Part shown: piece after piece, positions 7,835-63,842 of the stretch
Layout: the number at the start of each line of letters is the position of its first letter
Numbering within the stretch: position 1 is the stretch's first letter
NCBI GenBank assembly: GCA_964019335.1
Contig: OZ025745.1
Location: 124,001 to 188,000, forward strand
Length of the DNA stretch: 64,000 bases
Source: Diplonema japonicum
Taxonomy: Eukaryota; Protista; Euglenozoa: Diplonemea
Reading direction: 5' to 3'
Position numbers and translations under genes: made by a program
Notes under the pieces: model-generated
The model's database searches: none
What the model saw: the letters and a program-made list of their open reading frames with translations, nothing else
What the model was told of the DNA's origin: nothing

Positions 7835-10061
7835 TCAAGATTTCGCCTTTCCTTCCTTGTCCCACATCCCCCACCCTTTCTCAGAAGGGTATATTGTGTC
7901 CTTGACAGAGTCGTAGACTGACGGCACCTTCGCGAGTTCCTCATAGGTCATTGGTACTGGGGCCTCGCCTCGGAGCTGTCCCCTTCTTCGGAGTTCCATC
8001 TCGAAGGCGCTGGCCTTCATGTCGGTCATCATGGTGTCTAGCTCAGCTCGTCTTTGTTGCTGCTCGTGGTACCGCCTCGCGCCTATTTGTGCTGATATGT
8101 CGTAGAATCCTGTCTTGTTCATGAATAGTTCCATGCCTGCCCCCGCTACAAACCCCGCCCCCGCAAGGATGGCTAGCTGTGGTTTTTTTTTTTTTTTTTT
8201 CTTTTTTTTTTTTTTTTTCTTGTATAACCCCTAAAGGCCCGGAGCCTATCTACGGTACCCCCCCATTTTCGTTGTTGCTTTAAATACTCAAAAAAAAGGG
8301 CAGCATGCAACCATAGGAAGGTGCAAGGAAAGGGTAAACGGTACTAAAATTTTCAATTCCAGGTGCCAGATTCAGATGAGAACACTTAACTATGTGTGTA
8401 AGAGGGGGGTTGAGGGGGTACTTTTTATGTCCGACTTTGGGGGGTCTTGTCGTGGGGGGTCCGTGGAGTTATGGCTGGGGTAAATAGGGCAGCATTCAGC
8501 CCTATTTGGTGCCCTGAACTCTAGGATTGAGGTCAGTCTGGAGACTTTTTGGGGCTGTGGGATGAAAAAAGCAACTTGTGAGCTTTTTTTCCAGCTGGGG
8601 TAGCATGCAAGGGTAAAAAACACGTTTTGCATAAGGGGGTTTTGCAACAGGGACACCACGTTTGCACCTTCTTCCCGTACCCAGGAACAGCACAGAGCAC
8701 CCTCCTCACCTTCGTTCCGTTCATCATGGTCTCGGAGGTGTGATTTAGGGTCAAATCGAGACGTTTTGGGTATTTCTGAGTGAGGGAATCCTCATTGCTA
8801 GCGTGTTTGCGCTTGGGGGTCGGTTTTGGGGGCATGGGTGAGAAGCTTGCCAACAAGTTCTTCTTTGAAGCTCGGGAAGCCATAATTTTTGCCACATTCC
8901 CTGCTCTTCTTCCAGATTATGGAGGAGTTGGCAACACAGCTTTCCAGGACCCAATAAAAAACGACCATGGTCCACTTCCGGGTTTTCATATGCCGAACTC
9001 CAGTCCCCTGGAGCTGGTCTTGCCGGTCAGGGGTCGACAGCAAACCCTTAGGAGTCGACAGTACGCATGACTAGGTCCTGTGTTGTGGACTTCTTGCTGA
9101 AAATGTTGAAATTCGCCAGGTAACAGTTTTATGAGTCGCATGTAGCGATTACCTTGATGCCCACCGAGTTGCTTTTTCGTGGTGCCATGACTTTTATTGT
9201 TGTCGGGATAACACTGTCGTCAACAGACAACCACTTGCCAGGGGTCCGCACAGTCCTACACCGGTTGACAATGATGTCAAGAAACCTGCGCATGACTTAC
9301 TGATGTTTTCCAGGTTGTCAAAGGTGAGGTAGCGCTGTATGTCAACGAATCGGTTTGCTCATTTTCTCAAAAGCCGGGATGGCTAAAATAGAATCTGTTG
9401 TCCAGTAGCTCTTCATATTCGGTGCCGGGCGTAAACCCATTAACAGGACCAACCCAAGCCAAATTTTGTACTCTGGGATGGAAAGATTCAGATTCTGCTG
9501 TTTTTTTGAATCGAAACGACCGTTCGTGGAAGAAACTATGAGCTCAAGTACCGCGTGTGTAAAAAAAAAGATTAAAAACACCCTCCTCATTGGCCGCTTC
9601 ACCTAGAGGTGTCCAAAGCCCACCTTTTCACGGAAATGATATGTTTTGGGCCTTTGGGAGTATTTCTCCCACCCAAGCATCGTTTCCGGCCCCTCTTTGA
9701 CCGCCTCATCGTCTTTTTCTTCTTTTTCTGACCAGTCGGGCGAGACTCACGTTTTCGCTGCTATTTTGACCATCTGATTTCATTTTAAGCCAACCCTGCC
9801 GGTTTCAATTAAAACAAAACTTTTAACGCAAAATGTAGTTCCAAGACAAAATAAACCGCGCAACAATGCCATATTTTGAAGTCCAGGGGCCGTGTTCAAA
9901 AAAAAAGTACTTAGCGAAAAAAGCAAATTTTGAAATAAGGACAAAAACGTCCGCGCGGGCGTTTAGGGGATAAATATAAAAATAAATACCACGCTCTGCC
10001 GATCTCGCTTCGACATTGCTAATGCCACGCTGTGCTGACGTGCTCTTAATGCTCTAAACAT
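7835..10061 (-). CDS. Small (~137 aa) membrane protein, probably mitochondrial, UPF0640/SMIM4-like; its single intron (8177-9989) contains a piggyBac element
   Basis: Exon 1 9990-10061 MFRALRARQHSVALAMSKRDRQSV (Arg-rich, transit-like); GTATTT...CCACAG intron; exon 2 LAILAGAGFVAGAGMELFMNKTGFYD... in frame with ORF 7835-8134. Family call is from recalled motif only. Confidence 0.6.
8228..9969 (-). mobile_element. Non-autonomous piggyBac-family DNA transposon, copy 1 (1742 bp)
   Basis: TIRs CCCCTAAAGGCCCG / CGGGCGTTTAGGGG; ATAA duplicated on both sides; broken transposase (LGLVLLMGL...SYW, LSVDDS, DRQDQ...KTRKW, C-terminal CPCCKTPLCKTCFLPLH Cys-rich domain). Confidence 0.92.
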
Positions 10062-15401: not shown

Positions 15402-16231
15402 TTAAGCTCCTTTAAGAGAAACTCTTCTGGGCGTGCCGTAATTACTCCCGTTGTGCTGTAAAAAAAGAATTTTTTTTCCTTCCCCCTTCCATCATCTATA
15501 TAAAACACATACATGCGAGCCTGCAATCGAAGGTGTCTGCCCCCCATGAAACGCAGGTAAGGCAGTGGGTGTGGTGGATTCCCTGCGCATTCTTTCATGA
15601 ATGGCTTGGCCCCGCTCAGACATTCTACGCCCTTTCGAAGCCAATGAAGCGGTTTCTGAGGCTGCTGTCCGAGCGGCTCGAGCAGATTCGAACGGCGACA
15701 CCGCTTCGTCACCTCCATCTTCAAGGATATCTACATTGTGACTTGTGACTTTACCACGGCCACGAGACGGTGAGAGGGGCGCGCCTTGGTTGCTGCTTTT
15801 GAAGTCCTTCACGGCGCAGACCTCTACACCGTTGATGGTAGCTACAGTGACAGCTACCTGTGAGCTCATACTGCCAGAGCGTTTTAAGGACGAAGAAGAG
15901 TCGGACCGCATGGGTGAGCCGTGGCCGTAGCTGCTGCGTCTTAACGGTGACAGGGGGGCATGGTCATTGCCTCGTGCTGATGGGCTGTGTGCTGCTGGTG
16001 TGCTCCACGCCACTTTTTTCATGTCGTTGGGGGATGGAGGGGGTGTTCTCTTCGGTTTTCTTTTCTTCTCCGGAATCAATGTGTCGCCTGACTCCTGCCC
16101 GATCTTCTCTTTCAGCTTCAGAAGCTGCGCCACCATCTCCTGCCCGTTGTCCTTCCCTTGTTTGAAGTGTATCGCGCGTTCCAACGCTTGCTGCGCTTTT
16201 TGGAGATCTCGGGGAAAACCGTCGCTTCCCT

Positions 16232-16271
<40 letters not shown>

Positions 16272-17301
16272 TTGGAAAAAACATTACCCTTCGGTAGGAT
16301 ACCCAGAGGTATTTTCCAGCCTTGGCCCCGACCCTTGTGAATTTTTTGGAGATTTCCAGGAACTCCGCGAGGAGCTTTTGCTTGTCCGCCTCGATTTTGG
16401 AGATGTCGCCCTCTGTGAGTGACGCCCGGTCGCGTCTCTTCTTAAGCTGGCTAAGGTTCTCGCAGGCACACCTGAGGTGTGCGAGAGGATGCCCCGTCGA
16501 CACGGCACGCTCACGGTACTGCGCTTCCTTTTTTTTATCGCCCCTCGCATGGAAAAGCTCGCACAATGCAAGCAAGGGTGCGGCGGAGGTAGGTTTCACA
16601 TCAGACAGCTGAACAAGCCACTTCTCAGTGTGACCCATTTGAGGAATGACAGAGGGCTCGAGCGTGGATCCAGCCCGCGACCAAGCATCACCGCCGAGAC
16701 CATACAACGAAGAGAGACCGAGCAGCGCAACAAGATTCGTCTTGTCGTTCTCCTTCTTCTTCAGAACGGACAGGAAATGGCTGTGCGCACCCTCGTAGTC
16801 CTCCTCGTCTATCATCTCAAAGAATGCAGCATTCTGGTGGTACCCATAAGGGTCTGTATCAGATAGAACGTCACTGTCGTAGTCAGACAGACCTGACAGA
16901 CCAGATGCGTGCGAGATCCTGAAATCGGTTACAAGTGAAGTTCCCAAGTCGTTAGGTGATGTTATTTTTGTTGGTGGTGAAGTGGGCACTTTTGTTTCCT
17001 CCTGGCTTTCGGAGCTTGAGCCTTGCGTTTGTAACTCAGATGTGGCTTGGACCGGTGGTTCTTCGTGTTGTTGTTGTTGTTGTTGTGGTGGTGGTACTAG
17101 TGGTGCGACGCCTAGTGGTTTTGGTGATGATGGCTTTCTCGATCCGTTGAGGTCCTTCAAACTGGCCTTGGGGCTCATTGAAGGGGCCTTTTTTATGCCC
17201 GGCATGTCTCTTCTAAGAAAGCTCTCCTGCTGCTTTTTTTTTATCACGTCATCTCTCGCTACCTGTGGCCGCTCGGCCTGCTTCGCACCGCAGCATCCCA
17301 T
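15402..17301 (-). CDS. N-acylated (MGCC) Sel1/TPR-like repeat protein, paralog A, 3 exons (introns 16230-16287, 15456-15512)
   Basis: Start MGCCGAKQ; splicing gives Sel1-like SYRR|GSDGFPRDLQKAQQALERA; alignable with 25933-27788. Confidence 0.75.
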
Positions 17302-17357: not shown

Positions 17358-17701
17358 CCCCTCCCCTCCTCTCCTTTTTTTTGTTGAAATGGTGGGTCTG
17401 ACTGTTGGGGGGGGGGGGGGGGAGAGAAATAAAAAAGGAGAAAAAAATAGAAAAAGAAGAAAAAAAAAGAGAAAGAGAGAACCCCCTCAACTTTTTTTTT
17501 TTGAAAAAAACAAGGGGAAAAACGGAAAAAGGGTATTCCCACTTGAGGACCATCCTTTAAAAAAAAGAAGAAACGAAGGGGGGGGGGGGGGGGAGAAGTC
17601 TCTGAACAAGGAGGGGAAAGGGGCTATGCGGTGCATGTAAAAAAAAAAAAAAAACTATTCTTTTAAGGTATGCGTTTTTGCGCTCACCGGCCGCGCTGCG
17701 C

Positions 17702-20700
17702 TTAGTCCCCGTTGTCCCCGTTCTGGGGGCTCTGGCGGGTTCCTACTGCGGTGGTCATGCTGCGGGGCAGCCTTGTCGGTGTCTGCGACAGGTACCTGTC
17801 CCGCAAGCCTTCGATGCTGCTCATGGTTCGTTCCGGGAGTACTGGCCTCCTGTCATACCCGTGTGTGGTCGGTCCTCCGATACAGCGTAGGGAGTTGACG
17901 CGCTCCACTCGCGCCGCTGGGAACGCTACCCCTCTGCCATCAGCGTGGTACAGGTCCTGGACTCGTCTCAGCACATACCGTAGCCTCCTTGCCTTGACGC
18001 CCAGGTCCTCCACCTTGCCCACTTCCCCGCCGTCGTCCAGCGGCAGCTCCATCTCCCGCTCGAAGTCGAGGGCCAGCTCTAACGTCGTCACCGCCGTGTG
18101 CCGACCAGGCGCGTCATCCCACAGCAGGCCTCCCAACCACCTCAGCACCGGCCTCAGCAGCTTGTCCATCACCGTTCCTGACGCCCCCAGCCTTCGTAGT
18201 TCAGATACCGCCGGCGTCGGGTGCGCCCTCCCCGTCACGACCGCCCGCCACGGGTAAGCTTGTGTCTGCAGTGCGCGGTTCGCTTCCACCGCTGCATCCC
18301 TCCGCGTGACTACCTCCAGCAGGTACTTCTGCACCAGTAAGGCCCTTGGCTTGTCTTGGCAGCCTCTGGGCACCACCCCATGGAGCCTCGTCGCCTTCGG
18401 CATAGCTGCCGGGTCCAGGTTCGCGTACTCCACCTTGCTCTGCACCGCGACACCCGGCTCGCATCGCCAGAGGGCGTGCTCCAGCACCTCCGTGTAGCTG
18501 CCGAACCGTTCCTCACACACGTCGCAGAGGTGCTGCAGCGGGTTGTTCGGTTCCTGCGCCACGCCCCGCGCTCCCGGGTAGACCGCAAACACCGCTCCTG
18601 CAATCAGCCTCCTCAGTCGGTACGCCGCCACTGGGTTGCCCGAGAGTGACCTCCACCACACGTTCGTGTCCGGGTCGGCTCCCTCCGGCATGCCGTCGTA
18701 GGAGTCCCTCCCTTCTGCTAGCTCGGCTGCCGTCATGGCCCTCGCCACCCGCCGGATCTCGTGCTTGCGCTCGCGTTCCGGCATGGCACCCAGCCCCACC
18801 ACGAAATTCCAGCCTTTCCCGATCGCCGGCAGCCATCTTCTCATCAGGGTCCCCACTGGCCCCAGGGCTTCAATATCGCACTCCCGGTACAGGGCGGCAC
18901 ACCTCCCCATCCGGTCCCACAGCTCCGTATCCGACCCGCCTACCTTCACCACTGTGCACAGCAGTCGGTAAAGTGTCACCACCAGCGGGTCCGTCGTGTG
19001 CCCTGGCAGCAAGACGTTCGCAACAGCACACGGCGAGCGCATCTTGAACTTCGGTCCCCAGAGGCACGTCGCAACACTCGCTCGGATTGTACCCGCATCC
19101 ATTTTCGAGGGGGGTGCATAGGCAACACCGTAGAGGCAGGAGGGGAGAATGGAGCTGGTGAGGATCCTCGCCTTCTGTGTGAACCCCAGCGGCATGGCGG
19201 CCAGTCTCCCGCAAGCGCGTCCCATCGCCTCAAGGGGCTTCGCCCTGTGCTCGCCGTCCATACATACCCGGACTCCCAGGACGTTGATCTCCTTTTTGGC
19301 CGTGAGCACCTCACGTCCGCACTTCACCGTTCCGTGTTCTGCCGTTGTGAACAGGTCTGTCTTCCTCAGGTTGAGGTTCATCCCTGTCAGCAGAGAGAAC
19401 TCGCACACCCCCGCTGCCGCCTTCTCCAGGGCGCTGAGCAGAGCTGCTATCAAGTAGACGTCGTCCGCGTATGACAGGGAATCAGCGCCGGGCACCTCCG
19501 CCATGATGGCCTTCACCATCACCCCTACCAGCGCGTTCACCATCACCACCGAGATCGGGCACCCCTGCAGGATGCCGTTCGACGTAGCAAATTCGTCACC
19601 CACCCCTGTCGGGTATTTGAACCTCCGTCTGAGGGATTCGTACATCGTCTCCAGAGGGCGCAGTATGTTCTGATGCAGTCCCAGGTCCCCCATTAGCCCG
19701 AGCGCCACTTCCCGCGGGATTCGGTCGAAGCACTTGACAAAGTCTAGCGCGAGCCCGTGCATCGGCGTTCCCGATAGCAGAGCTTCTTCGAGCTGCGTCG
19801 TCAGTTCCAGCAGTAGCGTGTCCGTACCCCTCCTCGACCTAAACCCATGTTGTGACGCGTCCGCCCACGACTCCTGCCAGACCAAGATGCGTCTCATCCT
19901 CGTTGTCGCCCACAGCCTGTACACGGCGCTGGTGACGGTGATCGGGCGGTGGTCCAACGGGGCTCTGCCCTCGCCTTTCGGGATCAGAGAGACAAGCGCT
20001 GTCAATAGCGCCTCCGGCCACTTGCCGGTCTCCTCGACGATGTTGAAGAGCTGCGCCCACCTCTCGAGCAGCGCGTCAGGTATAGCCTTCAGTTCCGTGA
20101 TCCTCCAGCCGTCGACGCCTGGGGTGCCCCTCGCAGGTCTGCTGTTTAACACCTCCCTGAGGTCGCCCCCCGTGATCGGCTCCAGTTCCATGGGGTGTTT
20201 ATCGATATACCCGCCATACCTCTCTTTGAAAGCAGCGTAGGAAGGTCGGTCACTTTTGTCCGGGTACAGGTGGAAGACGGAGGCCCATGCCCCCCTCATC
20301 AGCGCGTCTATCTCCCCCAGATCTACCGTCAGCCTGCCGTCCTCCTTCGCGACTGCCAATGTGTGAACATCCTTGTCACCTCTAACGTAAGCTACGATCC
20401 TCCGCCTGTCGTCACGGAAATCAGCTGCCACCCGTTTCCTATAACTTGCCTCGTTCTCCAGGCGTTGCCGCATCACCGTGTCTCTGTCAGCCTGCTCCGC
20501 CGCAGCCTCCAGCTCCCGCAGTCCCACCAGCGCAGCCCCCAGGCTAGCGCCCCGTAGCAGGTCCTTGTCCGGCACGACCCCAAGGTGCATCTTCTCGGCC
20601 AGCTTAACGATGTTCCGCCACGTCCCGTGCAGCATCGCTGGCAGCGTCCCCGGCCCACCACGCAGCAGTGCCTCGTTCAGCCCCGTCCTGAGCGCCACGA

Positions 20701-21823
20701 TTTTCCTCCTGAGGCTGCCGTGCATCGTCTGGCCTCGTGCGGCAGCTCCCCCTGACGTCCCCGTCGACTTCGCTGCTACCATCTTCTCCGTCAGCTCTCG
20801 CGGCTCTCCTCTGCCTACGTACGACCTCACCTCCGTCACTCCGGCTGAGCTCAGCATATAGCGTTCGGTAGCGCAGCTCAGCAAGGCGTAGAGGCCCCCC
20901 ACGTCCCTGGCGTCAACTGCTTGGTGGATTGCGTCGTCGCCGGCAAGCCCTTGGTCAAGATCAGCGTCGGGCGTCACCGCTCCCACCGGTAGCTCCTTCG
21001 GGAGGAAGAAACGTTTCGTCCGCTTCTTGAGCGTCGGCGTGAAGAGCTCAACGGACAGACACAGGTGCTCCCCGGTCCGCACCCTCTTGTGTGTCCAGAA
21101 GCGTTTCAGCGCTCCGGCAGCCACCGCGTTGGCCAGGACGAAGTCTATCCGCGTCTTCGTCTCCGTCCCGGGTCGTTCGAAGGTGTGGTCCGGTTCCCGT
21201 CCGTCCTTCTCGGCCTGAAGCGCCCCGACGTCGACCCAGTCGTTTTCCACCGCGTGTTTCAGCGTCGCTGACCCGGAAACGTCCGTGTTCAGATCCCCTA
21301 AGACCAGGATCGGCACCTCCCCGAGTTTAGCCCTCAGTTCAACGAGCAGCGAGTGTAGGAGTCGTTCCCTGTCAGCCTTCCCGTAGTGGCCGGCGCTGCA
21401 GTACACCGTGATGACGTGGACCCATAGATCGCGGCCATCCACATTTATCATAGTGTGCAGCCACCTGTTCGGCTGCACTGTGATCCCCGATACTGGAGCC
21501 ACGATGGCCGGCCTGCCTTTCTTCGTCAGCACAGCGACGCCCCCCCTTTGCCCAAGGTTTGGATTGAGTACCCCTGCCCTGTCCGGCGTGCCATCCTGAG
21601 CGCGACCCCACAGGGGGTGATACCCGCCTTCATCAACAGCTTGCGACAGTTGGCGTTGACCGTGCTCAGTGAGTTTGGTCTCCTGCAGGCAGATCACCTC
21701 ATCCTGCGTTGCTAGGACCTGCGGGAGCTTGTTGTGCAGGGACCCGACATTCACCGATGTGATCCGGAGCACGTCATCGAGCAGAGGTGGGCCACTAGCG
21801 CTTCCTCCACTCATCCCTGCCAC
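17702..21823 (-). CDS. LINE ORF2: apurinic-like endonuclease + reverse transcriptase + C-terminal Cys/His finger
   Basis: APE motifs SVNVGSL, LQET, GDLN, RIDFVL; RT motifs PGVDGW, RPIT, QHGFR, LDFVKCFD, GILQGCPIS, YADD (19460-19471); CDVC...H...C. First ATG at 21814; in frame with ORF1. Confidence 0.95.
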   Translation of the reverse strand: MAGMSGGSASGPPLLDDVLRITSVNVGSLHNKLPQVLATQDEVICLQETKLTEHGQRQLSQAVDEGGYHPLWGRAQDGTPDRAGVLNPNLGQRGGVAVLTKKGRPAIVAPVSGITVQPNRWLHTMINVDGRDLWVHVITVYCSAGHYGKADRERLLHSLLVELRAKLGEVPILVLGDLNTDVSGSATLKHAVENDWVDVGALQAEKDGREPDHTFERPGTETKTRIDFVLANAVAAGALKRFWTHKRVRTGEHLCLSVELFTPTLKKRTKRFFLPKELPVGAVTPDADLDQGLAGDDAIHQAVDARDVGGLYALLSCATERYMLSSAGVTEVRSYVGRGEPRELTEKMVAAKSTGTSGGAAARGQTMHGSLRRKIVALRTGLNEALLRGGPGTLPAMLHGTWRNIVKLAEKMHLGVVPDKDLLRGASLGAALVGLRELEAAAEQADRDTVMRQRLENEASYRKRVAADFRDDRRRIVAYVRGDKDVHTLAVAKEDGRLTVDLGEIDALMRGAWASVFHLYPDKSDRPSYAAFKERYGGYIDKHPMELEPITGGDLREVLNSRPARGTPGVDGWRITELKAIPDALLERWAQLFNIVEETGKWPEALLTALVSLIPKGEGRAPLDHRPITVTSAVYRLWATTRMRRILVWQESWADASQHGFRSRRGTDTLLLELTTQLEEALLSGTPMHGLALDFVKCFDRIPREVALGLMGDLGLHQNILRPLETMYESLRRRFKYPTGVGDEFATSNGILQGCPISVVMVNALVGVMVKAIMAEVPGADSLSYADDVYLIAALLSALEKAAAGVCEFSLLTGMNLNLRKTDLFTTAEHGTVKCGREVLTAKKEINVLGVRVCMDGEHRAKPLEAMGRACGRLAAMPLGFTQKARILTSSILPSCLYGVAYAPPSKMDAGTIRASVATCLWGPKFKMRSPCAVANVLLPGHTTDPLVVTLYRLLCTVVKVGGSDTELWDRMGRCAALYRECDIEALGPVGTLMRRWLPAIGKGWNFVVGLGAMPERERKHEIRRVARAMTAAELAEGRDSYDGMPEGADPDTNVWWRSLSGNPVAAYRLRRLIAGAVFAVYPGARGVAQEPNNPLQHLCDVCEERFGSYTEVLEHALWRCEPGVAVQSKVEYANLDPAAMPKATRLHGVVPRGCQDKPRALLVQKYLLEVVTRRDAAVEANRALQTQAYPWRAVVTGRAHPTPAVSELRRLGASGTVMDKLLRPVLRWLGGLLWDDAPGRHTAVTTLELALDFEREMELPLDDGGEVGKVEDLGVKARRLRYVLRRVQDLYHADGRGVAFPAARVERVNSLRCIGGPTTHGYDRRPVLPERTMSSIEGLRDRYLSQTPTRLPRSMTTAVGTRQSPQNGDNGD

Positions 21824-21841
21824 AAGCTGTAATTGCTATTG
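21824..21841 (-). promoter_or_regulatory. Stop-codon readthrough signal CAA TAG CAA TTA CAG (UAG-CARYYA, TMV type)
   Basis: Minus strand reads CAA CAA TAG CAA TTA CAG CTT GTG GCA GGG ATG, with ORF1 and ORF2 in the same frame. Confidence 0.8.
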
Positions 21842-24127
21842 TTGTTGTTGTTGCACCGGCCCTTGGGGCAGCAGTAGCGGGGTGGCCGGGTGCTGTGGGT
21901 CGACCTGCATCTGTCCCGTTGGTGTGCTAGCGGTGGATCTCGTGCCGGACTTCGAGACCTTCCCGCCCTTTTCCTCACCTCCTGCCGTCCTCTTCCGACT
22001 AGCACTGCTCGTCAACGCCACCGCCGCCAACTCGGCAAGCTGTTGTTCCACGTCCATCAAACGCATTTGCGTGCTCTCCTGCGCCTTCTGCATCCGAGTG
22101 ATCTTTGCCAGGGCCTCTCGTAGTGCCTGCGCCATCGCCTGCTGGTCCGCCTGCCTCCTCTCCTGCTCGAGTCGAAGCTTCGCCATCGTCTCCTCGTGTC
22201 GGCGGTCCTTTTCGGCGTACTCGGCCTCCTTGGGCTGCCACCACGAGTGGAACGATTGCTCGGCTCCCTCACTCCGCGTCGGTCGCTTGGCAGGTCGAGG
22301 TTGTGCGGCGGGCCGCAGGGGTGGGAAGTCGCTCGTCTTGTTCTTGGTCGCAGGTGGAGGGGGAGGCTTATGTGCTGGCTTCTTTGCCCCACCCTTGCTC
22401 CCCCACGTGGAGTGCTTCAGGAGGTCTCCTTCCGCACCGTGCGGCCGGATCAGCCACTGCTCGTCGCCGCTCTCGAACATGAGGCCTGGTGGATCAGCCT
22501 CCGACGCTACCAGCCATGTGCAGGTTTTTCTGCCACTCGCCAGTACGCGCACCGCTTGTGCTGCCCACCCGATCGCGCGCAGCCTCTGCTCCACCACCAG
22601 CCCCGGGACCTGCGTTCCCATCCCCTTGACCGTGAAGGGGGCCCCCTTGATCGGCACCGGACGGCGGTCCTTCACCTTCTTCGCGGTCCTGTTGTGGAGG
22701 AAGGCCACCATTTCTTCTAGTCGTTCTGCTTTCACGCGGATCCCGTACTCTCCCGTGCCCTTGCTCCATGCCACCCCCAGCCCGTCTGCCTGCTTTGCGA
22801 GGAGAGCGGCGTCAGTCGCCGAGGCGCCTTCGATCCACAGAACGGGAAATTTGCTCGTCGATTGGTGTGGGGGACGTACATAGACTCCACCGGTCCCACT
22901 GTGTCGGTACAGGGTCTCCAGGTCCGCTCGGGCAACTACCATGCACAGCTCGGCGCAGCCGTCCCTCTTCGATCCCGTCCTCGGCTCGACCCGCGCCGTG
23001 CACTTGCTCGCGGCCCAGCGAACGAGGTCCCTCCTTGCGTCGTGGTAGTCCTTCTTGGTCCTCTCCACCAAGTAGACCTCGGCAGCACAGCTCTCGACCG
23101 CGGGGACTACCACCGTCTTCTTGACCTGCTTCAGGGGTGCGCCGCCCTTCGCCGTCACCCACAGCCTGCGCACACACCTGCCCTTGCCGCCGTCGGTCGC
23201 CAGCACCACCTGCTCCAGTACTCCCGGCATCGTGGGGAGTTTGGCCCTGGACACCAAGGTGGGTCCTTCCTTGTCGTCTGCGTCCATCAGCCACAGGGAC
23301 GCCACCTTTTCCATACCTGCAGGGACGAGCAGGACCGATCTGTTCCTGCCCACCTGCGGCGTCCAGTCGCCGGAGAATGCCTCCCAGCCGTCACTCACCA
23401 GCACCGCGTCGTCTTTCGTCGTTGCCTCGTTGTCACCGTCCTCGGCGTCCTTCGTTTCCTTAGCCTTTCGGGCTGCTGCCGCTCTCCTCTTCGCGCTCTC
23501 GCTCAGGAAGGGCATGGGCACCTTCGGGTTGTTGTAGGTGCCTGCTGCCGGGAGCGTTGTGCCCTCACGCACCGACAGCGCCACGTAATGGGCGGCAGCG
23601 AACCCCAGGTATATGGTGCTCTCTACCGCGTTGCGCGAGGGGAAGGAGGTGCACAACAGCTCCCCGTCCTTCACCTGGTAGCAGGCCAGGTGGCGCCGGC
23701 ACACCACGCTGAGCGCGAGGAGCTGCAGGATGTCCCCCCACGCTCCGTCCTTCACTGCTTGCACATATTCCCCGTAGCGCTCGGGGGCATACAGCAGTGC
23801 ACTGTTGTCGGTTGATGCCAGGTGGCTAGCCACCAGCTCCCTCAAGGCCGATCCAGCAGAGGTGCCCTGATGGATCGCTACTGATGTCGCCTCGTAGAGG
23901 CAGTCCCCCTCCGTCTTGGAGAAGTCTCTGATCGAGAACCCTTCTCCCAGCTTCGCCTGAAGCTCCGCCTTCGCCTTGCCCACCTCGCTTCCCGTTCCCG
24001 TCCCGCGGCCGGAGCCTTCGCCGCTACCACCACCCCCCATGTGGCAGCGTTGCCCGGGGTTCAACCTCGAGGAGGTCGCTCCCACCGCGCTGGACGTCGA
24101 TGATAGTGTTGGTGTTGATGTTGCCAT
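21836..24127 (-). CDS. LINE ORF1 with N-terminal OTU-like cysteine protease domain and C-terminal coiled coil
   Basis: EGDCLYEA (Cys 23900-23902) ... LRELVASHL ... YVQAVKDGAWGDILQLLALS ... IYLGFAAAHYVAL (His 23588-23590) follows the OTU signature. Confidence 0.85.
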   Translation of the reverse strand: MATSTPTLSSTSSAVGATSSRLNPGQRCHMGGGGSGEGSGRGTGTGSEVGKAKAELQAKLGEGFSIRDFSKTEGDCLYEATSVAIHQGTSAGSALRELVASHLASTDNSALLYAPERYGEYVQAVKDGAWGDILQLLALSVVCRRHLACYQVKDGELLCTSFPSRNAVESTIYLGFAAAHYVALSVREGTTLPAAGTYNNPKVPMPFLSESAKRRAAAARKAKETKDAEDGDNEATTKDDAVLVSDGWEAFSGDWTPQVGRNRSVLLVPAGMEKVASLWLMDADDKEGPTLVSRAKLPTMPGVLEQVVLATDGGKGRCVRRLWVTAKGGAPLKQVKKTVVVPAVESCAAEVYLVERTKKDYHDARRDLVRWAASKCTARVEPRTGSKRDGCAELCMVVARADLETLYRHSGTGGVYVRPPHQSTSKFPVLWIEGASATDAALLAKQADGLGVAWSKGTGEYGIRVKAERLEEMVAFLHNRTAKKVKDRRPVPIKGAPFTVKGMGTQVPGLVVEQRLRAIGWAAQAVRVLASGRKTCTWLVASEADPPGLMFESGDEQWLIRPHGAEGDLLKHSTWGSKGGAKKPAHKPPPPPATKNKTSDFPPLRPAAQPRPAKRPTRSEGAEQSFHSWWQPKEAEYAEKDRRHEETMAKLRLEQERRQADQQAMAQALREALAKITRMQKAQESTQMRLMDVEQQLAELAAVALTSSASRKRTAGGEEKGGKVSKSGTRSTASTPTGQMQVDPQHPATPLLLPQGPVQQQQQ

Positions 24128-24158
24128 AATGTTTCTTTTAACCCAAATTCAGAACCCC
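24005..24158 (-). ncRNA. HDV-like self-cleaving ribozyme at the LINE 5' end, overlapping ORF1
   Basis: P1 GGGGTTC/GAACCCC; P2 GCGGT-G-GGAGC/GCTCC-G-GCCGC; P3 ACC/GGT; L3 TCCTCGA; GG-GCAA; P4 CGCTGCCAC/GTGGTAGCG; J4/2 GCGAA with catalytic-C equivalent at 24020. Confidence 0.88.
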
Positions 24159-25008
24159 TGAAAAAAAAAAAAAAAAAATGGCAGTGTTCAAAACTCCATT
24201 TTTTAATTTCCCCTTCCGGCCTCTCAGTGCAGGAAAAAGGACCAAAAGAAAAGGAGAAAAACTAACACAAGAAAAAAAAGGGGTAAAGTGCAATAATGTG
24301 AAGACCGGACAGGGGTGGTGGTGGCAGTGGAGGGAAAGGTACAAGAAACTTTACGTACCCCTTCCTTTTCTATTTCTTTTTTTTTTTATTTTGTGAACTC
24401 TCCCCTCCTTTGTTTATATTCTTCTCTTTCTATTTTTTTTTTTCTTCGATTTTCAAAACAAACAAGATAGAGTGTCAGGGCACGAAAAGAATGTTGGGAA
24501 CAAAAAAAGAAGAGAGAGAAAAAAAATGGGGCAAACCGGAGCACAGCCATTTTAAGTTTCCTCTCCCCCCCACTTTTTTTTCTTTGTTCCTCTTTGGCTT
24601 TCGCCTACAAAAAACAGGGGCCCAAAAGAAGGGCTTAACTGTTATTATTTCTTCTTTTCCGTCCAGAAAGATCTCCTGAAGAAAATAATTTAAAAAAAAA
24701 AAAATTCAAATTAACATGCAAGCCCCTAAGACGAAAGCCGCACGCCCTAAAAAAGGGAAGGGTAGGTCAATACTAGGTATCTCAGTTTCGGTCAAATCTC
24801 GCGACTCCGTCAGGTGCTGCCTCTTACGGCGAGAGGCACCCCTCAATAGCTCCTACCAGCGTCCCACAGGTTGGAGAGTACTTTTCCCGACCAAAAAAAA
24901 AATATATATATGTGTTAAAGGAAGTCTTTGTGAGACGCCCCCTTGTTCTCATCTTCTACCTGCAAAAAAGAAAGAAAAAGAACCTCGGTGATTCATGTAC
25001 TAGACTAG

Positions 25009-26540: not shown

Positions 26541-26577
<37 letters not shown>

Positions 26578-27788
26578 GTATGTATACCCCTGACACTGGT
26601 CTTGACTCTGCCTGTTGTTTCTCCTTTACCCTCATGAGGTGCCCTTGCAGTTCCTGGAGGTTTCCCTGTTCGTATTTTATAGCTTTCTCCAGCAGCTCCG
26701 CCGCGCGGTTCAAATCCCGTGTTATACCGTCTGTTCCCTGCACAATAGTAATTTTTTTTTTTTTTTTTTTTTTTTTTTGATACCTTGTAGTAAGAAACCC
26801 ATATAAGCTTTCCAGCACGCGCGGCAACACGGGTGTTGGGGATGGAAATGCGGACAAAGGTACGGATAATCTCCTTTTTCTCAATCTCGTACTGGTCGGA
26901 CGGGATGGTCTTGGCGTCCCTATCAGAACGGAGCTTGCTGAGCAGCGAAACGGTGTAACGTAAGATACCAAGGGGATGGGAAGTCTTTGAAGCTGCAAGG
27001 CGGTAATTAGCCTCGGCATCCTTCCTCCCCAACGCATGTTGGTACTCGCAACATGCTAGCAGCGCACATGCAGAATTTGGGTTTTCCTTCAACCGCTCGG
27101 ACAACCATGATTCAGTGTGCTCCAACTGTTGAGGTGTGGCGTCGTTGACCGACTGTGGCCTCGACCATTCCCCGCCTCCTAGATTGTGCAACACAGCAAG
27201 CCCAAGAGAAACAACGACATAATCCATGCTTTGCTGTGTTTGTTGATCAAGCAAATCGCGAAACTTGTCGAAAGCAGCATCGTACTTCTCTTGATCAACT
27301 AGATCGTAAGCTGCGCTTATCTGGATATTTGCATCCTTCTTGACATTACTGTCCACAGGAGTATCTGCTGAGAATGTACCACCTGCAAGCGGGTTTTCAT
27401 CGGTAGTGCCTTGTTCTGATCGGGCAGTTTGTATTCTGATGGAAGGTATGTTCGCTAGGTGTCCTTCGCTGTCTGTTGAGTAATTAGATTGACGGGATTT
27501 TTTGCTGTCTGCTAGGGGATCGTCCTCTGTTGCAGTGATGTCGGGGCTTTGAGAGATGCTTGGCAGGATAGGGCTTGGTGTGGGGCTTGGTTCCGTAGTG
27601 CCCATTGTTCTTGCAGTGGGCGACGCGCTGGGTGTCAGCCGCACTGGTTTTCCTATCGTTGCCGCTCTCTTCTCGTTGACGGGGTAGTCCTTTCTGTTCC
27701 TGTTCTCGCCTTGCCTCAGTGTGTCGGCTTTCTTCACCGGCGGTGTGGTGTTGCTCGCCATGCTTTCTTTCCCACCACAGCAACCCAT
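25933..27788 (-). CDS. N-acylated (MGCC) Sel1/TPR-like repeat protein, paralog B, 3 exons (introns 26738-26783, 26542-26587)
   Basis: Start MGCCGGKE; SYYK|GTDGITRDLNRAAELLEKA after splicing; first intron at the same codon position as in paralog A. Confidence 0.75.
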
Positions 27789-27831
27789 TTTTTCCCCACC
27801 TCCCCCCCACTCCCCCCACCAACTTGCTGCT

Positions 27832-30655: not shown

Positions 30656-30753
30656 TTTCTTTTTTTTTTTTTCCGGCTTGTTGTATAAGTGTAGAGACCT
30701 TTTTTTTTGTTTTTGTTGTTGTGTGCTTTTTTTTTTTTCTTTTTTTTTTTTAT

Positions 30754-32538
30754 CCCCTAAACGCCCGGAGCCTATCTACGGTACCCCCCCATTTTCGTTG
30801 TTGCTTTAAATACTCAAAAAAAGGGCAGCATGCAACCATAGGAAGGTGCAAGGAAAGGGTAAACGGTACTAAAATTTTCAATTCCAGGTGCCAGATTCAG
30901 ATGAGAACACTTAACTATGTGTGTAAGAGGGGGGTTGAAGGTGTACTTTTTATGTCCGATTTTGGGGGGTCTTGTCGTGGGGGGTCCGTGGAGTTATGGC
31001 TGGGGTAAATAGGGCAGCATTCAGCCCTATTTGGTCCTGAACTCTAGGATTGAGGTCAGTCTGGAGACTTTTTGGGGCTGTGGGATGAAAAAAGCAACTT
31101 GTGAGTTTTTTTCCAGCTGGGGTAGCATGCAAGGGTAAAAAACACGTTTTGCATAAGGGGGTTTTGCAACAGGGACACCACGTTTGCACCTTCTTCCCGC
31201 ACCCAGGAACAGCACAGAGCACCCTCCTCACCTTCGTTCCGTTCATCATGGTCTCGGAGGTGTGATTTAGGGTCAAATCGAGACGTTTTGGGTATTTCTG
31301 AGTGAGGGAATCCTCATTGCTAGCGTGTTTGCGCTTGGGGGTCGGTGACGGTGTTGTCGGGGAGTGTGTGCTATCGGTTTTGGGGGCATGGGTGAGAAGC
31401 TTGCCAACAAGTTCTTCTTTGAAGCTCGGGAAGCCATAATTTTTGCCACATTCCCTGCTCTTCTTCCAGATTATGGAGGGGTTGGCAACACGGCTTTCCA
31501 GGACCCAATAAAAAACGACCATGGTCCACTTCCGGGTTTTCATATGCCGAACTCCAGTCCCCTGGAGCTGGTCTTGCCGGTCAGGGGTCGACAGCAAACC
31601 CTTAGGAGTCGACAGTACGCATGACTAGGTCCTGTGTTGTGGACTTCTTGCTGAAAATGTTGAAATTCGCCAGGTAACAGTTTTATGAGTCGCATGTAGC
31701 GATTACCTTGATGCCCACCGAGTTGCTTTTTCGTGGTGCCATGACTTTTATTGTTGTCGGGATAACACTGTCGTCAACAGACAACCACTTGCCAGGGGTC
31801 CGCACAGTCCTACACCGGTTGACAATGATGTCAAGAAACCTGCGCATGAGGTGCAGTTTCAGGCCTTCCAAATGCTTTCCAGGTTGTCAAAGGTGAGGTA
31901 GCGCTGTATGTCAACGAATCGGTTTGCTCATTTTCTCAAAAGCCGGGATGGTTAAATTAGAATTTGTTGTCCAGTAGCTCTTCATGTTCGGTGCCGAGCG
32001 TAAACCCATTAACAGGACCAACCCAAGCCAAATTTTGTACTCTGGGATGGAAAGATTCAGATTCCGCTGTTTTTTTGAACCGAAACGACCGTTCGTGGAA
32101 GAAACTATGAGCTCAAGTACCGCGTGTGTAAAAAAAAAGATTAAAAACACCCTCCTCATTGGCCGCTTCACCTAGAGGTGTCCTAAGCCCACCTTTTCAC
32201 GGAAATGATATGTTTCGGGCCTTTGGGAGTATTTCTCCCACCCAAGCATCGTTTCCGGCCCCTCTTTGACCGCCTCATCGTCTTTTTCTTCTTTTTCTGA
32301 CCAGTCGGGCGAGACTCACGTTTTCGCTGCTATTTTGACCATCTGATTTCATTTTAAGCCAACCCTGCCGGTTTCAATTAAAACAAAACTTTTAACGCAA
32401 AATGTAGTTCCAAGACAAAATAAACCGCGCAACAATGCCATATTTTGAAGTCCAGGGGCCGTGTTCAAAAAAAAAGTACTTAGCGAAAAAAGCAAATTTT
32501 GAAATAAGGACAAAAACGTCCGCGCGGGCGTTTAGGGG
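30754..32538 (-). mobile_element. Non-autonomous piggyBac-family transposon, copy 2 (1785 bp)
   Basis: Perfect 14-bp TIR CCCCTAAACGCCCG; TTAT duplicated on both sides; same broken transposase as copy 1. Confidence 0.92.
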
Positions 32539-32698
32539 TTATTCGGAAAAAATTCAAAAAAAAAGTGTAAAATTTATAACAAATAAATATAAGTCAAGTG
32601 TAGTGAGATAAAAAGGAAGAAGAAAAAAGCGGAGGGAAAAAGGAGAAAAAATTCAAAAAAAAAAAAATAACTCCTTCCCCTCCCCAGCACGCAACTCC

Positions 32699-61804: not shown

Positions 61805-61822
61805 TGTAAAAAAATGAAATAA

Positions 61823-62778
61823 CCCCTAAAGGCCCGGAGCCTATCTACGGTACCCTCCCATTTTCGTTGTTGCTTTAAATACTCAAAAAAAGGGCAGCAT
61901 GCAACCATAGGAAGGTGCAAGGAAAGGTAAACGGTACTAAAACTTTCAATTCCAGGTGCCAGATTCAGATGAGAACACTTAACTATGTGTGTAAGAGGGG
62001 GGTTGAGGGGGTACTTTTTATGTCCGTTTTGGGGGGTCTTGTCGTGGGGGGTCCGTGGAGTTATGGCTGGGCTAAAAAGGGCAGCATTCAGCCCTATTTG
62101 GTGCCCTGAACTCTAGGATTGAGGTCAGTCTGGAGACTTTTTGGGGCTGTGGGATGAAAAAAGCAACTTGTGAGTTTTTTTTTCTAGCTGGGGTAGCATG
62201 CAAGGGTAAAAAACACGTTTTGCATAAGGGGGTTTTGCAACAGGGGCACCACGTTTGCACCTTCTTCCCGTACCCAGGAACAGCACAGAGCACCCTCCTC
62301 ACCTTCGTTCCGTCTTGAATCGAAACGACCGTTCGTGGAAGAAACTATGAGCTCAAGTACCGCGTGTGCAAAAAAAAAGATTAAAAACACCCTCCTCATT
62401 GGCCGCTTCACCTAGAGGTGTCCTAAGCCCACCTTTTCACGGAAATGATATGTTTTGGGCCTTTGGGAGTATTTCTCCCACCCAAGCATCGTTTCCGGCC
62501 CCTCTTTGACCGCCTCATCGTCTTTTTCTTCTTTTTCTGACCAGTCGGGGGAGACTCACGTTTTCGCTGCTATTTTGACCATCTGATTTCATTTTAAGCC
62601 AACCCTGCCGGTTTCAATTAAAACAAAACTTTTAACGCAAAATGTAGTTCCAAGACAAAATAAACCGCGCAACAATGCCATATTTTGAAGTCCAGGGGCC
62701 GTGTTCAAAAAAAAAGTACTTAGCGAAAAAAGCAAATTTTGAAATAAGGACAAAAACGTCCGCGCGGGCGTTTAGGGG
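61823..62778 (-). mobile_element. Internally deleted piggyBac derivative, copy 3 (956 bp)
   Basis: Same TIRs; ATAA duplicated on both sides; ~800-bp deletion with junction near 62313. Confidence 0.92.
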
Positions 62779-63842
62779 ATAAAGAAAAAAATTCTTAAAG
62801 CTTTTGAAAAAGAATATAAAAAAAAAAATTCACACAGGAATTTTGTACCTCCCTGCAGTTTTTTCTTTCTCTCTCTTCTTTTATTCGTTCGCTTTTTTTT
62901 TCTCTTCCCCCCCCCCTCCCCTTCAGCGTCAAAAGAATTTATATGTTTAATTAAAACCGAATATCTTTTTCTTTTTAGAAATAGATCCTCTCAGCACCCG
63001 TTTGAATTCCCCTGAGGGGCACTGGGTAGTTCTTAGGATTTTGATACTTTTATTTTTCTTTTTTACTTTTTTTTTTCTCTTCGTTTTTCTTCGTTCTGAT
63101 TTGGAAAATCTTTTTTTTGGAAGTCTTTTTTTTTCTTTCTCCTTTGTTTCTCGAGCTTGAGGGGGTATTTTTTTTTTTTTTGTTCGCCCTGCTCTTGCGC
63201 GTACTGACTTACTTTTATGGGGAGGGGGAAGCTCGGGGGTTTTCCCCTTCCAGTTTTGTTGCTACTTCTGCCTAATTTCTTTGAAGTTCTTGTCTCACCA
63301 AATATCGGAAAGACCTCCAAAAAAAAGAAGGGGGGAAAAAAAAAAAGAAGAAAAACAATAACAACAACAAAACTACGGGGGGTTGATCAAATTACTTTTT
63401 TTTTCCTTCTTTTTTTCGCTTCTTTCCTTTTTTTTTTTTTTTTTTTTTTGAAACTTTCTTAATGAAGGTAGAACAGCCAATCACACAAGAATAGTACATG
63501 TGAATAAGAAAGAAAGAAGAAAAAAAAGGGGGAGATTTACATAGTACGGGGGGGGGGGGGGGATTAGCAACTACACCCCCCCCCAAAAAAATAACATTGC
63601 CAATAAGTCAGTCTCAGCATTCAAATCCCTTCTGCCTCCTCTTTTTGGCCACGCCTTCTCAAATTGGCATGAAAAAGACCAAAGGGTCATGCCAACCGCA
63701 AGAAGAAACAGAATAAAAAGGAAGAATGGGGAATGACAATATTTTTTTTCTTTTTTTTTTTTTTTTAAAGGATGGAGGTGCTAACTTAACCCCCGCCCCC
63801 GCTCTTTTTTTTTTTTTTTTTTTAAATAAAATATCCCCGAGA

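Follow-up and report, generated by a model that had tools for sequence, protein, structure and literature searches.

The first open reading frame (ORF1) of a full-length retrotransposon that lacks long terminal repeats (a non-LTR retrotransposon) in the diplonemid Diplonema japonicum begins with a genuine OTU cysteine-protease domain. The element lies in a 64,000-nucleotide window of contig OZ025745.1 (contig positions 124,001 to 188,000), where it occupies 17655..24158 of the minus strand, about 6.5 kb; coordinates below are window positions, and all features of the element are on the minus strand. An OTU-bearing ORF1 in a long interspersed nuclear element (LINE) of this kind is real and conserved, and adds to the transposons that carry deubiquitinase (DUB) domains.

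An OTU domain at the start of a LINE ORF1

ORF1 (763 aa; 21836..24127) is arranged as OTU, ORF1 core, and coiled coil, and its OTU domain spans aa 55-189 (23561..23965) according to Pfam, AlphaFold2, Foldseek, and VIA-align. A sequence-only reading of the window had proposed an OTU protease with intact putative catalytic Cys and His at 23570..23930, and the three motifs that it named all fall inside that interval: GDCLY (aa 74-78, with Cys76 at 23902-23900), WG (aa 130-131, 23740-23735, with Trp130), and HY (aa 180-181, with His180 at 23590-23588). The Trp of AWG corresponds to the oxyanion Trp of a viral OTU (PMC3744425); this copy keeps Cys76, His180, and the oxyanion Trp130. Profile and structure both bore out the domain's identity. 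PF02338 matches aa 72-161 with an E value of 1e-7 and 32.9 bits, above the gathering cut-off of 23.3, and the best Protein Data Bank (PDB) match by sequence is OTUD1 (E 8e-4). An AlphaFold2 model of aa 55-199, built from a 16-row alignment, has a mean predicted local distance difference test score (pLDDT) of 91.9. When this model was used in Foldseek, the top PDB rows listed were all OTUs (best 3tmp, E 5.6e-8, template modelling score 0.73), and VIA-align matched it to OTUD3, OTUD5, and OTUD1 with Z scores of 17.6, 17.4, and 16.9 and a root-mean-square deviation of about 2 Å over 127-130 residues; the match to nairovirus OTUs has a Z of 13. An Atlas search with the domain returned OTUs in 26 of 30 matches.

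The placement of this domain in a LINE is correct because ORF1 stands directly upstream of, and in frame with, an ORF of 1377 codons (ORF2, 17702..21835) that contains an APE endonuclease (about 21754-21125; PF03372, E 2.5e-10) and a reverse transcriptase (RT; about 19981-19265; PF00078, E 6e-18). Towards its C terminus, ORF2 has a CCHC knuckle of the form C-x2-C-x12-H-x4-C (about 18530-18460), read from the sequence; Pfam found no RNase H match in ORF2. The two frames are joined by the stop context CAA UAG CAA UUA CAG (21827..21841), the same 15 nucleotides given for the leaky stop of tobacco mosaic virus (TMV), which reportedly needs no downstream structure to function in plants, mammals, and yeast (PMC13517186). 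Of the readthrough polyprotein assumed by the sequence-only reading, the TMV-type junction is thus present, and we infer from it that UAG readthrough joins ORF1 to ORF2; a compatible stop context in a second subfamily would follow from the frameshifted end of P0007. Reassignment of TAG to a sense codon was considered and rejected, since TAG terminates 8 of the 29 long frames and the standard code leaves host frames of more than 1000 codons open.

Within the remainder of ORF1, a core (aa 240-570; 22418..23410) recurs in further elements of the clade, whether or not they have an OTU. It is RRM-like as a lead only, the Atlas leads being 0.80-0.85 and under 0.9. A single-sequence fold of the entire ORF1 was poor (pLDDT 42), and its sole confident part was a long helix at aa 625-706 (22010..22255), which is likely a coiled coil.

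The extent of the element is marked by a GC step (63-64% versus 40-50% in the background) and by a T18 run on its 5' side and a T16 run on its 3' side; these poly-T flanks may represent a target duplication. As to interspersed copies, the sequencing-run contigs described below contain at least two subfamilies, and this site shows the poly-T flanks only; no second copy of the LINE was found within the window. In the databases, the closest proteins, at 96% and 80%, come from EukProt transcripts of D. japonicum. At the 5' end we predict a hepatitis delta virus (HDV)-like ribozyme (24011..24158) that overlaps approximately the first 39 codons of ORF1 and would cut between 24159 and 24158. In its nested double pseudoknot, P1, P1.1, P2, P3, and P4 all pair, with a catalytic C in J4/2. 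A descriptor devised post hoc from the site matched once over both strands of the window; 393 kb of Markov shuffles gave no match. The Rfam HDV_ribozyme score is 19.6 bits, below the gathering threshold of 50, and the minimum-free-energy fold contains P1 and P4 with a stability that is not unusual (z 0.05). Since the ribozyme marks a 5' end upstream of the OTU, the element appears 5'-complete in this copy and contains the OTU. A loose contig end of the second subfamily implies a C-to-U change in P2 that preserves a G-U pair. Separately, a T18-CAG upstream (24158-24178) is a possible spliced-leader acceptor whose G is the first base of the ribozyme, and insertion into pyrimidine tracts might supply a capped mRNA.

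A module that moves within the clade

The sequence-only reading handled the OTU as a one-off. It is instead a recurring module, shuffled in position across a protist LINE clade, that stands before the core, after the core, or fused to the endonuclease. A search with the RT retrieved 60 proteins, the named ones from Diplonema; Pfam, run on 27 of them, found an OTU in four, and a local profile run over the whole protein collection brought in an OTU family of D. papillatum. The OTU is fused directly before APE in D. japonicum (P0011), D. ambulator (P0015), D. papillatum (P0102), and two families from the European Nucleotide Archive (ENA). A sensitive ORF1 search gave 14 matches, among which a D. 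papillatum protein (P0128, from an 11-member cluster) and an ENA protein (P0134) have the OTU followed by the core as in our element, with the same coiled-coil layout. One further candidate, P0126, the second representative match, is an Ig-repeat protein and was taken as spurious. A first metagenome scan and a viral scan found nothing. Among 20 metagenome loci, two have an OTU, both distant (L013 and L014) and located after an ORF1-like region; when the ORF1 core was compared by profile with L013, L014, and L010, the result was negative, and a later hidden Markov model of the core matched L013 (E 0.002) and neither L014 nor L010, whose cores are assigned by eye only. In P0124 and L014 the order is OTU, 2A motif, APE, which rules out mutual exclusion of OTU and 2A. 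In all, the OTU has been seen before the core, after the core, before APE, and before 2A; in four families it stays joined to APE with no Gly-Gly between them. In a Flectonema element, a weak Josephin match (E 0.019) occupies its slot.

The catalytic residues are retained in related copies. Seven OTUs were reached through RT rather than OTU similarity (P0011, P0015, P0052, P0064, P0102, L013, and L014), and all seven have the Cys and the His, as do 13 of 13 rows with element context; the domain has been kept, at 20-25% identity, in no fewer than four lineages of diplonemid type and in two distant ones. On an RT tree of 43 rows, OTU-bearing and 2A-bearing rows are intermixed inside well-supported clades; a minority of the rows have a known upstream region, so that the tree gives no count of OTU presence. 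The OTU tree, in which 3 of 17 branches are starred, is compatible with one or several captures. Alignment A7 included one OTU-less row (P0074).

Contigs from eight runs, labelled as the same organism or as other organisms, allow the subfamilies to be compared. For a contig of the second subfamily, 31 of 68 differences were listed, and the codon statistics rest on those 31: third codon positions account for 19 of them (p 0.001), the amino acid is unchanged in 21 of the 29 codons affected, given 112 silent and 329 replacement sites, and none falls on the Cys, Trp, or His. Judged from these codons, divergence between the subfamilies is mostly silent.

Several side observations concern relatives. 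Ahead of its ORF1 core, P0132 has a stretch flanked by RASG motifs in which a Ulp1-like His/Cys arrangement can be seen by eye, with no Pfam match. P0144 and P0134 have an RNase H-like stretch ahead of the OTU in ORF1 (Pfam RVT_3 at only E 0.2, in P0144). In L002, L004, L007, L013, and P0066, the motif R-[VI]-G-E-A-x-x-P-G-[PK] occupies the 2A position of sister elements, at least twice in L013. P0127, a D. japonicum transcript, has a related OTU (35%) and is perhaps the ORF1 of a sister family.

Possible roles of the OTU

The reading that we favour, at about even confidence, is that the OTU works as a deubiquitinase of low activity, specific for Gly-Gly and tethered to the RNA-protein particle of the element itself. 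In this proposal the 5' ribozyme would free the element RNA from a host co-transcript, and ORF1 protein (ORF1p), produced in excess, would trimerise on that RNA. Occasional UAG readthrough would yield an OTU-ORF1-APE-RT fusion, so that every particle is proposed to carry the protease. The tethered OTU would then prolong the life of ORF1p, ORF2p, or the translating ribosome by stripping ubiquitin from them. The same Gly-Gly specificity could let relatives cut polyproteins at xRGG, perhaps a side activity here. A tethered enzyme acting in trans fits better than a fixed cut because the position of the OTU is free and four families keep it joined to APE without a Gly-Gly; and since a Josephin match takes the same slot in Flectonema, the common denominator would be deubiquitinase chemistry. 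Turnip yellow mosaic virus (TYMV) provides a known case: its PRO is an OTU with a Cys-His dyad only, shows weak DUB activity, and works by co-localisation (PMC3744425).

A number of results weigh against an active tethered deubiquitinase. The classical triad Asp/Asn, two residues after the His, is replaced by Val182; this position is Asp or Asn in four aligned human OTUs and is the triad residue in a viral OTU (PMC3744425). The triad Asp is found in 0 of 6 ORF1-located rows versus 6 of 7 rows at the N terminus of ORF2. AWG, with its oxyanion Trp, is absent from all four D. japonicum transcript proteins, the 9-nucleotide loss of AWG is present in one of four runs, and a contig joint of low depth that omits the whole OTU domain (23539-24001) occurs in four of four. 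Damaged copies are normal for any LINE family, yet the expressed ones observed are damaged. Finally, P0028, P0129 (whose available stretch joins the core to APE and lacks an OTU), and P0132 (a DNA methylase plus the ORF1 core common to the element, E 8e-13) share the core with no OTU detected. Since such same-core relatives exist, the OTU is dispensable for the clade.

The main alternative, which we think rather unlikely, is that the OTU is mainly a polyprotein protease, cutting the readthrough ORF1-ORF2 fusion after a Gly-Gly and freeing ORF2p, as 2A does in sister elements. The in-frame TMV-type junction speaks for it, as does [LFMIV]RGG, which occurs at protease flanks in 3 of 12 families (1305 aa contain 4 such motifs, with 0.17 expected; Poisson p 7.5e-4, post hoc), with LRGAGG in a fourth (L013). 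Moreover, in one ENA family, whose OTU lies on ORF2, three proteins (P0080, P0084, and P0087) have a ubiquitin-like domain that ends in RLRGG and immediately precedes the ORF1 core; this domain is known from proteins only and may belong to the element or to a host gene containing it. A complex prediction between our OTU and a relative's ubiquitin-like domain scored 0.11 against a mark of 0.34 and was used neither for nor against. However, xRGG is absent near the OTU of our element and at its ORF1-ORF2 junction. The best candidate is a weak one, MSGG at the first Met of ORF2 (21803..21814), 10 residues before APE. A Gly-Gly stands at the equivalent place in the two closest RT relatives, P0009 and P0105, but the Met of MSGG could be a plain re-initiation start. 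Nor is a Gly-Gly within 30 aa of APE clearly enriched: it occurs in 6 of 11 non-2A rows versus 5 of 17 2A-type rows (background 14%), in a count where four rows were reassigned to 2A-type by eye and three rows without upstream sequence were left out. The co-occurrence of OTU and 2A in P0124 and L014 also counts against processing, because it means that the two are not substitutes. A tethered deubiquitinase and cutting of the readthrough product are not mutually exclusive, and processing may be the main job in relatives.

The missing triad Asp/Asn and the expressed copies without the oxyanion Trp would also suit an OTU that has been retained for binding ubiquitin, with catalysis slight or absent, and that guides the particle to ubiquitinated chromatin, ribosomes, or repair sites. 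Domains that only bind usually lose the catalytic Cys and His, whereas both are present in every row with element context, and TYMV PRO is active with the dyad alone; we hold this reading to be improbable. Still less probable, and already largely refuted, is a captured host OTU fragment decaying as a passenger without use. The deletion variants and the patchy spread on the RT tree are what it has in its favour, but the silent-biased divergence, the retention across distant lineages, and a GC content at third codon positions of 0.79 in the OTU region, like that of the remaining element, contradict it. That an adjoining host gene or a misassembly was joined to the LINE is refuted. Nothing beyond the rarity of the layout suggests it, while OTU and core occur together in transcript proteins and run contigs, the ribozyme marking the 5' end sits upstream of the OTU, and D. 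papillatum has the same layout.

A broader proposal, possible but tentative, is a clade-wide, virus-style ubiquitin-mimic system. Interchangeable OTU and Josephin-like DUBs would cut the elements' own polyproteins at Gly-Gly sites resembling the ubiquitin tail, in one family at an element-encoded ubiquitin, and would also reverse ubiquitination by the host where recoding takes place (2A, leaky UAG).

Surroundings, known systems, and meaning

Elsewhere in the window, a second repeat of about 1.8 kb is present in three copies (8185-9972, 30710-32555, and 61819-62794) that are 95-99% identical. One of its frames (30953-31624, minus strand) ends in a Cys-rich stretch that we take to resemble a piggyBac tail; Pfam gave only a weak B-box match. 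Two paralogous host genes (15964-17300 and 26571-27790, minus strand) flank the element region and start with MGCCG, a possible acylation signal. Host introns are unusually rich in poly-A.

The closest parallels to the element combine some of its features. A LINE of Symbiodinium necroappetens has an ORF2p with an N-terminal OTU, Dualen/RandI has an ORF2p with a Josephin, and it has been suggested that such DUBs are linked to the stalling of ribosomes at 2A (PMC13405545, preprint). The likeness lies in a DUB domain on an APE-type non-LTR protein tied to translational recoding; the Symbiodinium OTU, however, is one passing case on an ORF2p with 2A, whereas here it is the N terminus of a separate ORF1 with UAG readthrough and recurs and moves in the clade. 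Ginger1 and Helitron (PMC2836005) likewise have OTU cargo of putative function on a transposon protein, exchangeable with another ubiquitin or ubiquitin-like protease (Ulp1), but they are DNA transposons with the OTU C-terminal on the transposase, and they involve neither an RNA particle nor the recoding of a polyprotein. NeSL and Utopia (PMC4640811) share an N-terminal papain-like protease of the ubiquitin-like class on a non-LTR element and differ in being of the restriction-like endonuclease type, with a single ORF and Ulp1 rather than OTU. SymbioLINE-Dnmt (PMC5890265) is a protist LINE with enzyme cargo in ORF1; its cargo is a methyltransferase, and the available text of PMC5890265 does not mention a protease. 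The methyltransferase-bearing P0132 shares the ORF1 core, and we infer that it is a SymbioLINE-Dnmt; the RT tree contained no named SymbioLINE RT.

Tymovirus PRO and nairovirus vOTU (PMC3744425) place the OTU fold on a replicase polyprotein, and TYMV PRO, a Cys-His dyad that both processes and deubiquitinates, is the best working analogue. In structure our OTU, with its oxyanion Trp, resembles the cellular OTUD1/3/5 (Z 17) more than it does vOTU (Z 13). Ingi/L1Tc of trypanosomatids (PMC3708506; PMC3185411) are euglenozoan APE-RT elements with a 5' HDV-like ribozyme and, as in many relatives of our element, a 2A before APE. Ingi is defined by a single ORF with 2A before APE and no ORF1 (PMC3708506), whereas our element has two ORFs, including an ORF1, and neither a 2A motif nor an RNase H match; the RT tree was built without reference clade sequences, Ingi/L1Tc not being among its rows. 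We found no report of an OTU in a LINE ORF1 in a literature search outside which Repbase reports and supplements lie, so that an earlier mention is possible. The D. papillatum genome paper gives LINE ORFs without domain detail in its available part (PMC10161547), and term searches of the accessible text of PMC5718144, PMC3708506, PMC12278014, and preprint 10.64898/2026.05.21.726589 found no mention of OTU.

Why transposons such as Ginger, Helitron, NeSL, and Dualen carry DUB domains has been a standing question since their description. The clade offers natural comparisons, with the OTU before or after the ORF1 core, on ORF2, replaced, or absent, and with or without xRGG and 2A; the genus has genetic tools, and a 135-aa domain suits standard probes. 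If the ubiquitin-mimic proposal is true, it would be the first case in which a non-LTR retrotransposon matures its polyproteins by means of a protease. The finding points to ubiquitin as a layer of host defence against LINE particles, and to an RNA-virus-like mode of expression, with ribozyme, leaky stop, and protease, in a retrotransposon.
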